Positions 3,518 to 57,257 are shown, counted from the stretch's first letter. The stretch is 64,000 nucleotides of DNA from Escherichia coli (GCF_044647545.1 NZ_CP172818.1); one strand, 5' to 3'. The notes: generated from the letters alone by a model not told the origin. Program-made: numbers and translations.

Positions 3518-3919
3518 ATGGAAATCAGTCTGTTGCAGGCATTCGCGTTGGGCATTATCGCCTTTATCGCTGGCCTGGATATGTTTAACGGCCTAACCCA
3601 TATGCACCGCCCGGTGGTCCTCGGCCCGTTGGTCGGGCTGGTACTTGGCGATCTGCATACCGGTATTTTAACCGGCGGTACGCTGGAACTGGTGTGGATG
3701 GGGCTGGCCCCGCTGGCGGGCGCACAGCCGCCTAACGTGATTATCGGTACTATCGTCGGCACGGCGTTTGCCATTACTACTGGCGTGAAACCCGATGTCG
3801 CGGTCGGTGTCGCCGTACCTTTCGCTGTCGCAGTACAGATGGGGATTACCTTCCTGTTCTCGGTGATGTCCGGCGTGATGTCCCGCGGCGACCTGGCAAC
3901 AAACCCGTGCCGCGTTTGA
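3518..3919 (+). pseudogene. agaW: agaW' fragment of PTS EIIC component (N-terminal part only)
   Basis: 133-aa ORF with IIC-like transmembrane N-terminus that terminates prematurely; matches the truncated agaW of K-12, where agaE/agaF are missing. Confidence 0.8.
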
Positions 3920-3938
3920 CGCTGGTGCCGACGGCCTG

Positions 3939-4442
3939 GTGCATTGCTATAACGGGATGACAGGTTTACATCACCGCGAACCGGGAATGGTTGGCGCGGG
4001 ATTAACGGACAAGCGCGCCTGGCTGGAACTGATAGCCGATGGTCATCATGTACATCCGGCGGCGATGTCGCTGTGTTGTTGCTGTGCGAAAGAGAGAATC
4101 GTGCTGATCACCGACGCGATGCAGGCAGCCGGGATGCCGGATGGTCGCTATACGTTATGTGGTGAAGAAGTGCAGATGCACGATGGCGTTGTCCGTACCG
4201 CGTCCGGTGGGCTGGCGGGCAGTACGCTGTCTGTCGATGCGGCAGTGCGCAACATGGTCGAGTTGACGGGCGTAACGCCTGCGGAAGCCATCCATATGGC
4301 ATCGCTGCATCCGGCGCGTATGCTGGGTGTTGATGGTGTTCTGGGATCGCTTAAACCGGGCAAACGCGCCAGCGTCGTTGCGCTGGATAGCGGGCTGCAT
4401 GTGCAACAAATCTGGATTCAGGGTCAATTAGCTTCGTTTTGA
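3939..4442 (+). pseudogene. agaA: agaA' fragment of N-acetylgalactosamine-6-phosphate deacetylase (C-terminal part only)
   Basis: 167-aa ORF corresponding to the C-terminal region of a NagA-like amidohydrolase; no N-terminal metal-binding region. Confidence 0.8.
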
Positions 4443-4518
4443 TGGTTTGCTCCTTTATTGGGCCTTCACTTCCCCCGTAAGGCCTTTCTTTTTCTTTCTT
4501 TTTGATCTGTGCAGCGGT

Positions 4519-4575
4519 GTCGGATGCGACGCTGACGCGTCTTCTTCGACCTACGGTACGCCGCATCCGGCAATC
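4519..4575. repeat. REP-like palindromic element
   Basis: gtcggatgcgacgctgacgcgtcttcttcgacctacggtacgccgcatccggca; reverse complement begins GCCGGATGCGGCGTA, typical of REP. Confidence 0.5.
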
Positions 4576-4599
4576 GGTGAACATAGCGACGTTATCACG

Positions 4600-4755
4600 C
4601 AATCCTTTAATCTTCCCTTGTCTTTTCTTTCAATGATCACAAATTTCGTTTTATTTCTTTTTTCTCCATTGAACTTTCAGTTTCTTTTCTATAGATTTTA
4701 ATCAACGAAAGACATCACCAAGTGAAATGAAACGAAAGGTAAGCGAAAGCGACAA
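4600..4755. promoter_or_regulatory. agaS promoter region with CTTTC/TTTCRTTT repeats (putative AgaR operators)
   Basis: Clustered motifs cttttctttc, tttcgttttatttc, tttcagtttcttttc, gaaatgaaacgaaag directly upstream of agaS. Confidence 0.5.
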
Positions 4756-4792
4756 CGCCCGACGCCAAGTTCATCAGACTAAGGATTGAGTT

Positions 4793-5947
4793 ATGCCAGA
4801 AAATTACACCCCTGCTGCCGCTGCAACCGGTACATGGACTGAAGAAGAGATCCGCCATCAGCCTCGCGCATGGATCCGTTCACTCACCAACATCGACGCG
4901 CTACGTTCCGCGCTCAATAACTTCCTTGAACCGTTACTGCGCAAAGAGAATCTGCGGGTAATCCTGACCGGAGCCGGAACCTCGGCATTTATCGGTGATA
5001 TCATCGCGCCGTGGCTCGCCAGCCATACCGGTAAAAACTTCAGCGCCGTACCGACCACCGATCTGGTCACTAATCCGATGGACTACCTGAATCCAGCTCA
5101 TCCGCTACTGTTGATCTCCTTCGGTCGATCCGGCAACAGCCCGGAAAGCGTCGCCGCCGTGGAACTGGCGAATCAGTTTGTACCGGAATGCTATCACCTG
5201 CCGATCACCTGCAACGAAGCGGGCGCTCTTTACCAAAACGCGATCAACAGCGACAACGCGTTTGCCCTGCTGATGCCCGCAGAAACGCACGATCGCGGCT
5301 TTGCGATGACCAGCAGCATTACCACCATGATGGCCAGCTGCCTCGCGGTTTTCGCACCTGAGACGATCAACAGCCAAACCTTCCGCGATGTGGCAGATCG
5401 TTGCCAGGAAATCCTGACCTCACTGGGCGATTTCAGCGAAGGTGTGTTTGGTTACGCACCGTGGAAACGGATCGTTTATCTCGGCAGCGGTGGCTTACAG
5501 GGCGCAGCACGCGAGTCGGCGCTGAAAGTACTGGAACTGACAGCGGGTAAACTGGCGGCCTTTTATGATTCCCCGACCGGATTCCGTCATGGCCCGAAAT
5601 CGCTGGTCGATAACGAAACGCTGGTGGTGGTGTTTGTCTCCAGCCACCCTTACACCCGTCAGTATGATCTTGATCTGCTGGCAGAACTCCGCCGCGATAA
5701 CCAGGCATTGCGCGTAATCGCCATCGCCGCGGAAAGCAACGACGTTATTACCGCCGGTCCACATATCATCCTGCCGCCGTCCCGTCACTTTATCGACGTT
5801 GAGCAGGCATTTTGCTTCCTGATGTACGCCCAGACGTTTGCACTGATGCAGTCGCTGCACATGGGTAATACGCCGGATACCCCATCAGCCAGTGGCACCG
5901 TTAACCGCGTGGTGCAAGGCGTAATCATTCATCCGTGGCAGGCATAA
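4793..5947 (+). CDS. agaS: AgaS, SIS-domain sugar isomerase/deaminase (putative galactosamine-6-phosphate deaminase)
   Basis: 384-aa ORF; recognised sequence. Confidence 0.92.
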   Translation: MPENYTPAAAATGTWTEEEIRHQPRAWIRSLTNIDALRSALNNFLEPLLRKENLRVILTGAGTSAFIGDIIAPWLASHTGKNFSAVPTTDLVTNPMDYLNPAHPLLLISFGRSGNSPESVAAVELANQFVPECYHLPITCNEAGALYQNAINSDNAFALLMPAETHDRGFAMTSSITTMMASCLAVFAPETINSQTFRDVADRCQEILTSLGDFSEGVFGYAPWKRIVYLGSGGLQGAARESALKVLELTAGKLAAFYDSPTGFRHGPKSLVDNETLVVVFVSSHPYTRQYDLDLLAELRRDNQALRVIAIAAESNDVITAGPHIILPPSRHFIDVEQAFCFLMYAQTFALMQSLHMGNTPDTPSASGTVNRVVQGVIIHPWQA

Positions 5948-6820
<873 letters not shown>

Positions 6821-6986
6821 TCATTAGTTTTTTATGATTTATCCCAATGTACTTCCCGATTAATATCGGGGAGTGCCTTAATGGAAAAGGAGATGACTAA
6901 ACCTTAATAAATACATAAGTACAATATCGCAACAATAATATATTTAAAAAAATTATATTATTCAACTTTATGGTGAGGATTACACA

Positions 6987-7463
6987 ATGAGCAGTCCAAA
7001 TATTCTCTTAACCCGTATTGATAACCGTCTGGTTCACGGTCAGGTTGGCGTGACCTGGACATCCACCATCGGTGCGAATCTGTTGGTAGTCGTGGATGAT
7101 GTTGTCGCTAACGATGATATTCAACAGAAATTAATGGGTATTACCGCAGAAACCTACGGCTTTGGCATTCGTTTCTTTACTATCGAAAAAACCATTAACG
7201 TCATCGGCAAAGCTGCACCGCATCAGAAGATCTTCCTGATTTGCCGTACGCCACAAACGGTACGTAAATTGGTAGAAGGTGGTATTGACCTGAAAGATGT
7301 CAACGTCGGCAATATGCATTTCTCGGAAGGGAAAAAGCAAATCAGCAGTAAAGTTTATGTCGATGACCAGGATCTCACGGACTTACATTTTATTAAACAA
7401 CGTGGCGTGAATGTTTTCATTCAGGACGTCCCTGGCGATCAAAAAGAACAAATCCCTGACTAA
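6987..7463 (+). CDS. agaB: AgaB, PTS galactosamine-specific EIIB component
   Basis: 158-aa ORF; paralogous to AgaV (RIDNRLVHGQVG motif). Confidence 0.92.
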   Translation: MSSPNILLTRIDNRLVHGQVGVTWTSTIGANLLVVVDDVVANDDIQQKLMGITAETYGFGIRFFTIEKTINVIGKAAPHQKIFLICRTPQTVRKLVEGGIDLKDVNVGNMHFSEGKKQISSKVYVDDQDLTDLHFIKQRGVNVFIQDVPGDQKEQIPD

Positions 7464-7501
7464 ATCTAAAATCGCCTTAATATTGGTTTGAGGTAATAAA
7501 A

Positions 7502-8305
7502 ATGCATGAAATAACCCTACTCCAGGGATTATCCCTGGCGGCGTTAGTTTTCTTTCTGGGGATTGATTTTTGGCTGGAAGCCTTATTTTTATTCCGCCCG
7601 ATAATCGTTTGTACCCTTACAGGTGCTATTCTCGGTGATATTCAGACTGGCTTAATTACCGGTGGCCTGACAGAGTTGGCTTTCGCCGGATTAACCCCTG
7701 CAGGTGGTGTTCAGCCGCCCAACCCTATTATGGCGGGTCTGATGACCACTGTCATTGCATGGTCTACGGGCGTTGATGCCAAAACGGCAATTGGTCTTGG
7801 CCTGCCGTTTAGTTTGTTAATGCAGTACGTCATTCTGTTCTTCTATTCCGCTTTCTCATTATTTATGACCAAAGCCGATAAATGCGCAAAAGAGGCGGAT
7901 ACGGCAGCATTTTCCCGACTTAACTGGACAACGATGCTCATCGTCGCTTCAGCGTATGCGGTGATTGCTTTCCTCTGTACTTACCTGGCACAAGGGGCGA
8001 TGCAGGCGCTGGTGAAAGCGATGCCCGCTTGGCTGACCCACGGCTTTGAAGTGGCTGGCGGTATTCTGCCTGCCGTTGGTTTTGGCTTGCTGCTGCGCGT
8101 GATGTTCAAAGCGCAATATATCCCTTACCTGATCGCCGGTTTCCTGTTCGTTTGCTACATCCAGGTCAGCAACCTGTTGCCGGTTGCCGTGCTGGGTGCA
8201 GGCTTTGCGGTGTATGAGTTTTTCAATGCGAAATCCCGGCAGCAAGCGCAACCGCAGTCCGTTGTCAGTAATAATGAAGAAGAGGACTACAGCAATGGGA
8301 TCTGA
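7502..8305 (+). CDS. agaC: AgaC, PTS galactosamine-specific EIIC component
   Basis: 267-aa hydrophobic ORF. Confidence 0.92.
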   Translation: MHEITLLQGLSLAALVFFLGIDFWLEALFLFRPIIVCTLTGAILGDIQTGLITGGLTELAFAGLTPAGGVQPPNPIMAGLMTTVIAWSTGVDAKTAIGLGLPFSLLMQYVILFFYSAFSLFMTKADKCAKEADTAAFSRLNWTTMLIVASAYAVIAFLCTYLAQGAMQALVKAMPAWLTHGFEVAGGILPAVGFGLLLRVMFKAQYIPYLIAGFLFVCYIQVSNLLPVAVLGAGFAVYEFFNAKSRQQAQPQSVVSNNEEEDYSNGI

Positions 8306-9086
8306 AATCAGTAAAAAAGATATCACCCGTCTGGGCTTTCGTTCGTCACTGCTGCAAGCGAGCTTTAACTACGAAAGGATGCAGGCGGGCGGTTTTACCT
8401 GGGCGATGTTGCCGATCCTGAAAAAGATTTATAAGGACGACAAACCGGGCCTAAGCGCGGCGATGAAAGATAACCTCGAATTTATTAATACCCACCCGAA
8501 TCTGGTCGGATTCCTGATGGGGTTATTAATTTCGATGGAAGAAAAAGGAGAAAACCGCGACACCATTAAAGGCCTCAAAGTGGCACTGTTTGGCCCAATC
8601 GCCGGGATTGGCGATGCGATTTTCTGGTTTACCTTATTGCCGATTATGGCGGGAATTTGCTCATCATTTGCCAGCCAGGGAAACTTGCTGGGGCCGATTC
8701 TATTTTTCGCCGTTTACCTGCTTATCTTCTTCCTGCGCGTCGGCTGGACCCACGTCGGTTATTCAGTCGGCGTGAAGGCTATTGATAAAGTGCGAGAGAA
8801 CTCGCAGATGATTGCTCGTTCGGCAACCATCCTCGGGATCACGGTAATCGGCGGGCTGATCGCTTCGTATGTGCATATTAACGTGGTGACATCGTTTGCC
8901 ATCGACAGTACCCACAGCGTCGCACTGCAGCAGGATTTCTTCGATAAAGTCTTCCCGAACATTTTACCGATGGCCTACACCCTGCTGATGTATTACTTCC
9001 TGCGGGTGAAAAAAGCGCATCCGGTGCTGTTAATCGGCGTGACTTTTGTGCTCTCTATTGTTTGTTCCGCATTCGGCATTTTGTAA
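8295..9086 (+). CDS. agaD: AgaD, PTS galactosamine-specific EIID component
   Basis: ATG at 8295 (MGSEISKKDITRLGF...), 263 aa, overlapping the agaC 3' end by 11 nt; the track ORF begins 37 codons upstream. Confidence 0.9.
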   Translation: MGSEISKKDITRLGFRSSLLQASFNYERMQAGGFTWAMLPILKKIYKDDKPGLSAAMKDNLEFINTHPNLVGFLMGLLISMEEKGENRDTIKGLKVALFGPIAGIGDAIFWFTLLPIMAGICSSFASQGNLLGPILFFAVYLLIFFLRVGWTHVGYSVGVKAIDKVRENSQMIARSATILGITVIGGLIASYVHINVVTSFAIDSTHSVALQQDFFDKVFPNILPMAYTLLMYYFLRVKKAHPVLLIGVTFVLSIVCSAFGIL

Positions 9087-55101: not shown

Positions 55102-55653
55102 TTATTTCGTTGTACCCACAGGTTCAGTGGTTTCATTATTACCTGGCGCAGCAGCTGGCGCATCGCCACTATTCTTATTGTCATCGCCTTTACTACCGTA
55201 AAGGAACTGACCAATGAGATCTTCCAGCACCATCGCAGACTTGGTGTCCTGAATTGTATCGCCATCCTTCAGGATAGCAGTCCCCAGTTCCGGGTCTTCA
55301 AAACCGACGTTTAATGCCAGATATTGTTCCCCCAGCAGGCCGGAAGTACGAATGCTCAGCGAACTGGTATCAGGAATGTGGTTATAACGTTGTTCAATTT
55401 CCAGCGTTACGCGCGGCAGATAGGTTTTCGGGTCCAGCGTAATATCCGCCACCCGGCCCACAACAACGCCACCAATGCTGACCGGAGAGCGCGCTTTCAG
55501 GCCGCCAATGTTATCGAACGTCGCATAAAGCGTATAGGTCGGTTCAGTACGTATGGACGTCACGTTCGCCGCCTTCAGGCAAACAAACAGCGCCGCCAGT
55601 AGTGCTGCTAATAAAAAGATACCCACCCAAATTTCATTTTTTTTCGTTTGCAT
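55102..55653 (-). CDS. mlaD: MlaD, MCE-domain substrate-binding protein
   Basis: ATG at 55653 (MQTKKNEIWVGIFLL), 183 aa. Confidence 0.93.
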   Translation of the reverse strand: MQTKKNEIWVGIFLLAALLAALFVCLKAANVTSIRTEPTYTLYATFDNIGGLKARSPVSIGGVVVGRVADITLDPKTYLPRVTLEIEQRYNHIPDTSSLSIRTSGLLGEQYLALNVGFEDPELGTAILKDGDTIQDTKSAMVLEDLIGQFLYGSKGDDNKNSGDAPAAAPGNNETTEPVGTTK

Positions 55654-55657
55654 GAAC

Positions 55658-57257
<1,600 letters not shown>

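Follow-up and report, generated by a model that had tools for sequence, protein, structure and literature searches.

The gap between kbaY and agaB in the aga/gam cluster of Escherichia coli is an ordinary operon-internal spacer, which carries one well-supported conserved RNA stem-loop (hairpin 1) and one conserved AT-rich block (the palindrome-2 block), the role of the latter being uncertain. The aga/gam genes are a textbook AgaR-controlled system that contributes to gut colonization by E. coli, and their description ends at three promoters. The explanation that best accounts for the spacer, which we put forward with confidence and doubt in equal measure, is that hairpin 1 would serve as a barrier to mRNA decay, agaB would be read from a ribosome-binding site of its own, and the palindrome-2 block would be antisense promoter-like DNA.

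The kbaY-agaB junction and its conservation

The DNA analyzed here (the window) is a stretch of 64,000 nucleotides that includes the aga/gam cluster (N-acetylgalactosamine/galactosamine) of E. coli, and the cluster shows 97.4% identity to that of MG1655 (MG1655 coordinate = window position + 3277183). The genes around the spacer are arranged as follows.

4793-5947: agaS
5960-6820, + strand: kbaY, tagatose-1,6-bisphosphate aldolase, the upstream cistron (ORF list; RefSeq annotation of identical or near-identical E. coli DNA)
6821-6986, + strand: kbaY-agaB intercistronic spacer, untranslated, 166 nt (between the kbaY end and the agaB start)
6987-7463, + strand: agaB, galactosamine PTS IIB, the downstream cistron (ORF list; RefSeq annotation)
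from 7502: agaC

The first-pass annotation had described a very AT-rich, 166-bp kbaY-agaB spacer, and both the limits (6821-6986) and the composition were confirmed: the spacer contains 64 A, 23 C, 23 G and 56 T, which corresponds to 27.7% GC (27% by a 150-nt sliding window). GC content is about 0.55 in kbaY and drops to about 0.42 in agaB; the nearest non-enterobacterial relatives of AgaB are found in Firmicutes. Compared with MG1655, the spacer has three SNPs (6895, 6917 and 6919), all within 6877-6929, and no indels, and it was found in about 5,250 of 5,426 complete E. coli genomes. Hairpin 1 and palindrome 2 are each present in a single copy per E. coli genome (median one place) and once in the 64-kb window; a REP/BIME-like or other mobile repeat was rejected on this ground.

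Several other candidates within the spacer did not hold up. A small ORF with its ATG at 6881 (MEKEMTKP and stop) varies in frame and start within Escherichia (MG1655 and others) and is absent in Citrobacter, and a minus-strand ORF of 12 codons lacks conservation, as read from the sequence. The purine motif AAGGAG in the spacer middle (6887-6892) is partly conserved. Searching 6500-7300 with the Rfam 15 covariance models returned only three chance-level matches (E 2.3-8, far under the gathering scores). Our literature search found no paper describing hairpin 1 or palindrome 2, and the spacer has no entries among the published start sites and 3' ends of Adams 2021 and Kim 2012.

Orthologues were collected by a protein-seeded scan with one genome per species, which gave 27 agaB loci in Enterobacteriaceae, 24 of them with kbaY directly upstream. 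Spacer homology is limited to Escherichia (E. coli lineages, E. whittamii and E. albertii) and Citrobacter, and Pseudocitrobacter keeps a hairpin related to theirs; the kbaY-agaB spacers of other genera are unrelated and 38-200 bp long. A pattern scan of metagenomes yielded mostly chance matches, with the kbaY-agaB arrangement in seven loci, five of which were added as variants; one of these, L095, is clearly more divergent. The alignments comprised 11 sequences and then, with the five metagenome variants, 16 sequences (Escherichia and Citrobacter). As a neutral yardstick we used the four-fold degenerate sites of kbaY and agaB, at which E. coli and Citrobacter show 0.41-0.50 identity. The segments and features of the spacer, with their identity to Citrobacter, are listed below.

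6821-6848: pre-hairpin segment; identity 0.32-0.42
6849-6876, + strand: hairpin 1, an RNA stem-loop with a 12-bp stem (6849-6860 / 6865-6876) including two G.U pairs and a UAAU loop (6861-6864); identity 0.50-0.68
6877-6929, + strand: middle of the spacer, poorly conserved and AU-rich, a candidate endonucleolytic cleavage region; identity 0.37-0.45
6930-6966: palindrome-2 block; identity 0.70-0.78
6934-6962, no strand: palindrome 2, aataatata (6934-6942), 11 nt, tatattatt (6954-6962), by sequence inspection
6937-6965, - strand: sigma-70-like antisense promoter match, -35 TTGAAT (6965-6960), 17 nt, -10 TATATT (6942-6937), with a predicted start at about 6930 towards kbaY (consensus scan, PWM)
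6967-6986, + strand: agaB ribosome-binding region, TTTATGGTGAGGATT at 6967-6981, with the SD core GAGGA at 6975-6979, 7 nt before the ATG; identity 0.75-0.80

The identity of the middle segment equals that of the four-fold sites, and the middle therefore drifts neutrally. In the profile as a whole, the constraint falls on sequence for the palindrome-2 block and the ribosome-binding region, and on structure for hairpin 1. In this comparison of orthologous spacers, which the first-pass annotation had proposed as a check, the structure of hairpin 1 and the sequence of palindrome 2 are kept; the symmetry of the palindrome and the caac repeats beside it are not.

Hairpin 1

Hairpin 1 begins 29 nt past the kbaY stop codon and has a perfect core, cccgat (6855-6860) / taat / atcggg (6865-6870), within the arms gtacttcccgat (6849-6860) and atcggggagtgc (6865-6876), which include the two G.U pairs. 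A hairpin had been pointed out here before; it is real, but the string given for it was one g short, the correct one being tcccgattaatatcgggga at 6854-6872, with four g. When the spacer was shuffled with its dinucleotides preserved, a 12-bp stem (G.U allowed, loop 3-8) appeared in 17 of 2000 shuffles (0.85%), so that hairpin 1, taken alone, is beyond chance. The fold reaches -19.2 kcal/mol (z -5.8) on the + strand and -10.8 kcal/mol on the - strand.

The alignments allowed us to follow the stem across species. Pairing is retained in 92.4% of cells with 11 sequences and 89.5% with 16, against 27-48% in slid controls, and both sides have changed in compensatory fashion in 6 of the 12 pairs (11 sequences) or 5 of the 12 (16 sequences); none of 500 shuffles reached the observed pairing or covariation score. 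A strand bias is also present, with 21 G.U cells on the + strand versus 5 on the - strand and 92% versus 80% of cells paired, and RNAalifold predicted hairpin 1 as the sole helix in the spacer. The arms in Citrobacter, AGCGCTATCTGAT / ATCAGGTAGCGCT, differ in sequence and form an equivalent helix, while Pseudocitrobacter has a related stem, AGCGTTATCTGG / CTGGATAACGCT, with one further compensatory pair and AUUUUU next to it. We are thus highly confident that hairpin 1 is a structure selected in the sense-strand RNA.

Outside this group, stable hairpins lie just past kbaY in Trabulsiella, Pluralibacter and Phytobacter ursingii and are unrelated in sequence; no hairpin was found in the genera with 38-49-nt spacers, and no significant structure in Kosakonia or Phytobacter massiliensis. 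A stem-loop after kbaY is accordingly recurrent across genera yet dispensable, and its absence from several genera means that it is a tuning device at most.

As for its function, the spacer would be an untranslated part of one agaS-kbaY-agaBCDI mRNA, transcribed from Ps, the promoter in front of agaS that AgaR controls. Hairpin 1 would fold in this sense RNA and block 3'-to-5' exonucleases after a cleavage that we infer in the AU-rich stretch downstream, with weak termination at most, and the agaS-kbaY segment, on which the catabolism of both GalNAc and GalN depends, would in this way persist longer or be more abundant than the agaBCDI segment (the GalN-specific transporter). The idea of an RNA processing structure separating agaS-kbaY from agaBCDI, raised in the first-pass annotation, gains support for hairpin 1 from the compensatory changes, the strand bias and the RNAalifold prediction. 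Because a U-tract is lacking, a decay barrier is the most likely role of hairpin 1, and judging from its anatomy and by analogy, we give an even chance that it works mainly in this way. Two published results fit the decay-barrier reading: deletion of agaS is polar on agaBCD and spares kbaY (PMC3668189), and in EDL933 induced in bovine rectal content the log2FC falls from 4.57 for agaY to 3.01 for agaB and 2.11 for agaC (PMC6199705). Differing basal levels could account for the falling log2FC in EDL933 instead of attenuation.

Alternatively, hairpin 1 might be a leaky intrinsic terminator or attenuator at which some polymerases stop after kbaY, so that transcription of agaBCDI is lowered and RNA decay plays no part. 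The stem has the GC-rich character of an intrinsic terminator (12 bp with 6 G-C pairs, GC-rich at its top, and a loop of 4), its stability and its place shortly after the stop codon would suit one, the Pseudocitrobacter counterpart runs into its AUUUUU, the C. amalonaticus version stands between AAAA and UUUCU, and the induction ratios do fall from kbaY to agaB. However, there is no U-tract 3' of hairpin 1, where Escherichia continues with CUUAAUGG and most Citrobacter with CGUGAU or CAUUG, and it goes unreported in a terminator scan that requires 5 T in 8; the stem is conserved, but the tail is not conserved in Citrobacter. We regard termination as rather unlikely to be the main role.

The palindrome-2 block and the start of agaB

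The second element proposed from the first look at this DNA, a 9-bp inverted repeat aataatata-N11-tatattatt, exists exactly as described, at 6934-6962. A perfect 9-bp inverted repeat (loop 3-20) arose in 87 of 2000 dinucleotide-preserving shuffles (4.4%), and palindrome 2, taken alone, is hence only marginally beyond chance in AT-rich DNA. The caac direct repeats said to flank it are present (6930-6933 and 6963-6966) but are not conserved in Citrobacter, for which reason we rejected them as an element and treat them as chance.

Symmetry is not what is maintained here. Palindrome 2 pairs in 86-90% of cells only because its columns are conserved: no pair carries changes in both partners, and shuffles give the same counts. 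Its left arm is nearly invariant and its right arm drifts, and the divergent variant L095 has lost the palindrome and retained AATATA-N17-ATGCAA (on the minus strand TTGCAT-17-TATATT). That L095 keeps two hexamers at 17 nt and loses the palindrome indicates that the symmetry is not the conserved feature; the upkeep of symmetry expected of a palindromic operator is not seen at palindrome 2. An RNA hairpin was rejected as well, given a fold of -3.7 kcal/mol, absent covariation and a negative RNAalifold result. Since the block is conserved, palindrome 2 probably has some function.

The constrained positions of this putatively functional DNA block coincide with minus-strand -35 and -10 hexamers whose spacing is constant at 17 nt. 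TTGAAT-17-TATATT is the sole promoter-like match of the consensus scan in 4400-7600, and its PWM score of 12.4 bits ranks it in the top 3 of the 64-kb window with both strands counted (128 kb scanned). It recurs at identical columns in all 11 aligned sequences with 9-12.4 bits; the hexamers are 98% (AATATA) and 95% (ATTCAA) conserved and the intervening gap 77%, with a gap length of 17 in 16 of 16 sequences. Invariance extends to several positions of the gap itself, which goes beyond what a pure promoter model requires. In C. amalonaticus S646, ATTCAA and the SD are separated by a natural insert of about 150 bp, with the palindrome-2 block and agaB intact, which argues against the block acting through its distance to the agaB start.

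Published H-NS data bear on the same region. Peaks were called at window positions 6674-6764 and 7135-7680, which flank the spacer and exclude the spacer itself, and an H-NS-repressed minus-strand start was mapped at MG1655 3283908, which is window position 6725 (PMC8894471). A perfect TATAAT on the minus strand (6737-6732) lies exactly 7 nt upstream of this start. Such surroundings fit an antisense promoter. For palindrome 2 we prefer to think of an active antisense sigma-70 promoter, a tentative assignment that we consider possible and somewhat doubtful. Speaking against it are the invariant gap positions, the 8.8% of shuffled spacers that reach 12.4 bits and the lack of an RpoD peak here in genomic SELEX (gSELEX; PMC3946193). 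In a stronger form, TTGAAT-N17-TATATT would be a selected antisense promoter whose transcript or polymerase traffic, heading back across hairpin 1 and reaching the end of kbaY, tunes the Ps-driven supply of agaBCDI; this we judge quite unlikely. If true, the promoter would act by transcriptional interference or RNA duplex formation, and the galactosamine transporter would gain a layer of control that is separate from AgaR and coupled to H-NS.

Palindrome 2 could instead be a site for a protein other than AgaR (IHF, Fis, H-NS or a dimeric regulator) that modulates agaB read-through or H-NS silencing. Purifying selection on the block, the pairing kept in 86-90% of cells and the invariant positions within the 17-nt gap would all suit a protein site. 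So might the A-tract followed by ATTCAA-N4-TT, which resembles the IHF pattern WATCAANNNNTTR. The H-NS peaks flank the spacer, but their intervals leave it out (PMC8894471), and the drift of the right arm beside a nearly invariant left arm, together with the hexamers kept in L095 where the palindrome is gone, is not expected of such a site. No regulator or motif could be matched, and literature searches found no binding data; we hold a protein site to be not very probable. An informal by-eye comparison with the CRP, sigma-54, LysR T-N11-A, Fur, ArgR and NagC/Mlc motifs gave no convincing match.

Next to the block, the ribosome-binding sequence TTTATGGTGAGGATT has one variable column (T/C) among its 15, the other 14 being identical throughout the 16 sequences, and a small, invariant helix, GGAUU/AGUCC, is predicted by RNAalifold to bridge the SD and agaB codons 3-4. 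As agaB lies 166 nt from kbaY, coupling of its translation to that of kbaY cannot occur and agaB relies on its own ribosome-binding site; initiation would thus take place at this nearly invariant site. The need for a separate initiation region raises the possibility that 6930-6986 acts in RNA only, as an unstructured AU-rich leader that recruits S1 for uncoupled agaB translation and/or offers an entry point for RNase E. The block indeed consists almost wholly of A/U, lies beside the nearly invariant SD region and has a very weak fold. However, compositional constraint alone predicts about 50% identity, where the hexamers show 95-98%; the S646 strain tolerates its insertion between block and SD with agaB intact; and the block is absent where spacers are 38-66 nt long. 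A purely RNA-level role is improbable in our view.

Transcription into agaBCDI and comparison with known systems

The first-pass annotation had also suggested an internal promoter or operator for agaBCDI in this spacer, which found no support. For the operator, we searched the window with WRMMTTTCRTTTYRTTTYNYTTKK, the AgaR consensus as reported by Ray and Larson 2004. Allowing 0-3 mismatches (0.05 matches expected), seven matches were obtained, six lying upstream of either agaR/kbaZ or agaS and one at 55628, and none with up to 3 mismatches in 6821-6986. The matches upstream of agaS are given here.

4640-4663, + strand: AgaR operator-consensus match, Ps region (pattern search)
4718-4741, - strand: AgaR operator-consensus match, Ps region (pattern search)
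4481-4504: further AgaR operator-consensus match upstream of agaS (pattern search)

For a promoter, the consensus scan returned nothing on the + strand of the spacer, and the best sense sigma-70 match by PWM scored 7.1 bits, below the mean of 8.9 for shuffled spacers, 81% of which reach at least 7.4. Weak sense matches at 7.1-7.4 bits, TTCAGC-16-TATGAT (start at about 6845) and TTTATC-17-TAATAT (start at about 6873, the -10 lying in the loop of hairpin 1), are partly conserved, and no conserved strong sense promoter precedes agaB across 23 kbaY-linked orthologous loci.

An internal sense promoter or operator, by which agaBCDI would be expressed or regulated apart from agaS-kbaY with a regulator on one of the palindromes, finds an argument in the hns mutant. 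In delta-hns, agaB RNA rises 16-fold, kbaY 7-fold and agaC 4-fold, with agaS unchanged (PMC8894471), and Ps-independent transcription therefore exists here once H-NS is removed. In the same study, the cloned fragment ran from window position 6637 to the agaB stop and the "expected agaB mRNA" was 684 nt (PMC8894471), implying that its authors took transcription to begin upstream of agaB. The partly conserved sense matches and the purifying selection on palindrome 2 may be added on this side. Against it stand the low sense scores, the missing AgaR match and the polarity of the agaS deletion, from which it follows that agaBCD depends on the agaS promoter Ps. In addition, Gam+ growth required agaS to agaD on one plasmid, only three promoters, PR, PZ and PS, have been described for the cluster, with Ps driving agaS-kbaY-agaBCDI (PMC3668189), and no peak between kbaY and agaB appears in the RpoD-holoenzyme gSELEX list (PMC3946193). 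An internal sense promoter or operator is thus very unlikely. The idea that both palindromes are functionless chance products of AT-rich, horizontally acquired junction DNA can draw on the shuffle frequencies of the inverted repeat and the promoter match, the GC drop, the Firmicutes relatives of AgaB and the unrelated spacers of other genera, but it is already disfavoured by the conservation data and highly improbable, since hairpin 1 is maintained by compensatory changes and the palindrome-2 block stands far above the neutral identity at which the spacer middle lies.

If our preferred layout of decay barrier, separate ribosome-binding site and antisense promoter-like block is right, a conserved intercistronic stem-loop would explain both why deletion of agaS is polar on agaBCD and not on kbaY and why induction fades along the operon, and hairpin 1 would offer a simple handle on how the shared AgaS/KbaY enzymes are set apart from the GalN-specific transporter. 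A conserved antisense promoter-like block would likewise make a small test case for selection on "spurious" promoters in H-NS-bound DNA. These findings leave unchanged the broader view of how operons are regulated internally.

Among known systems, the AgaR (DeoR-family) operators at Pr, Pz and Ps (Ray and Larson 2004, cited in PMC3668189) belong to the same cluster and also lie in AT-rich intergenic DNA, but they are TTTC-containing direct repeats, and the six matches at known promoter regions have no counterpart in the kbaY-agaB spacer. Intrinsic terminators and attenuators share with hairpin 1 a GC-rich stem in an untranslated gap after a stop codon, and the Pseudocitrobacter counterpart even has the U-run; the stem in Escherichia and most Citrobacter differs from them in having no U-tract and in the negative terminator scan. 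The H-NS-silenced cryptic sigma-70 promoters, intragenic and antisense, of AT-rich horizontally acquired DNA, which have been shown for agaB itself (Forrest et al. 2022, PMC8894471), resemble the palindrome-2 block in that an AT-rich spacer between H-NS peaks holds good minus-strand -35 and -10 elements with a documented H-NS-repressed minus-strand start nearby, at window position 6725. Such promoters are usually unconserved, whereas the hexamers and spacing of palindrome 2, a predicted promoter, are kept over two genera.

Intercistronic stem-loops that shield the upstream portion of a polycistronic mRNA against 3' exonucleases are known from the REP hairpins between malE and malF in E. coli, from the puf operon of Rhodobacter capsulatus and from the processing of papB-papA. 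Hairpin 1 departs from these in being single-copy and locus-specific rather than a REP/BIME element, in having a role predicted from sequence, and in being missing from several genera of identical gene order. It is like them in being a stable sense stem-loop soon after a stop codon, with no U-tract and with an AU-rich single-stranded stretch next to it, and in its setting, as agaS-kbaY would plausibly be needed in larger amounts than a membrane transporter and induction falls over the junction.

Origin of the agaBCD module

The closest relatives of AgaB (6987-7463; loci L030-L082, homologous loci from other genomes) outside the Enterobacteriaceae are Firmicutes proteins of Clostridium, Thermoanaerobacterium and Erysipelotrichaceae, which share 64-73% identity with it, and the Yersinia relative reaches only 66%. 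On the two sides of the kbaY-agaB spacer (6821-6986), kbaY has a GC content of about 0.55 and agaB one of about 0.42. Together, the Firmicutes relationship and the GC fall suggest that agaBCD was acquired horizontally, with the spacer as the junction.

In Citrobacter amalonaticus S646 (L015), a GC-richer insertion of about 150 bp (about 2345-2490 of the locus) lies between the conserved ATTCAA hexamer and the agaB Shine-Dalgarno sequence, lengthening the spacer to 335 bp. The inserted DNA resembles a mobile element or small repeat. In E. coli FDAARGOS_497, an IS1 element interrupts agaB (7288-8541 of the locus, L001), and the spacer is 100% identical to that of the window.

Candidate promoter, initiation and operator signals

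Five sequence features were located in and around the spacer or elsewhere in the window:

6732-6737, minus strand: perfect TATAAT within the 3' end of kbaY
6861-6866, sense strand: TAATAT, the -10 element of promoter match TTTATC-17-TAATAT (7.1 bits)
6887-6892: Shine-Dalgarno-like AAGGAG, 11 nt 3' of hairpin 1, the spacer stem-loop at 6849-6876
6977-6997: 5-bp helix GGAUU/AGUCC, predicted by RNAalifold, joining codons 3-4 of agaB to the end of its Shine-Dalgarno sequence
55628-55651, plus strand: one more match to the AgaR operator consensus, with 3 mismatches, CAAATTTCATTTTTTTTCGTTTGC

The minus-strand TATAAT lies exactly 7 nt upstream of TSS_3283908 (window 6725), an H-NS-repressed start site (PMC8894471) listed there with no strand sign. 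With the strand inferred from sequence, the hexamer and the start site constitute a putative antisense promoter within kbaY.

On the sense strand, TAATAT serves at once as the loop of hairpin 1 and as the -10 element, and the position of the match is kept in 7 of 11 sequences; as a promoter, it is too weak to call. AAGGAG is partly kept in Citrobacter (GGAGGAG, AAGGAGG), and neither a start codon nor a reading frame is conserved downstream of it. The predicted helix is invariant in 15 of 16 sequences and is uninformative because it shows no covariation. The AgaR match lies where minus-strand ORFs 55102-55668 and 55658-56440 meet, well away from the aga cluster, and may be due to chance.

The agaW-agaA deletion

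Region 3518-4442 carries a truncated agaW' (133 aa) and a truncated agaA' (167 aa), which is the arrangement left by the K-12-type 2.3-kb deletion of agaW-agaE-agaF-agaA. Yet over the aga cluster the window is only 97.4% identical to MG1655, and the deletion is therefore not confined to K-12 itself.
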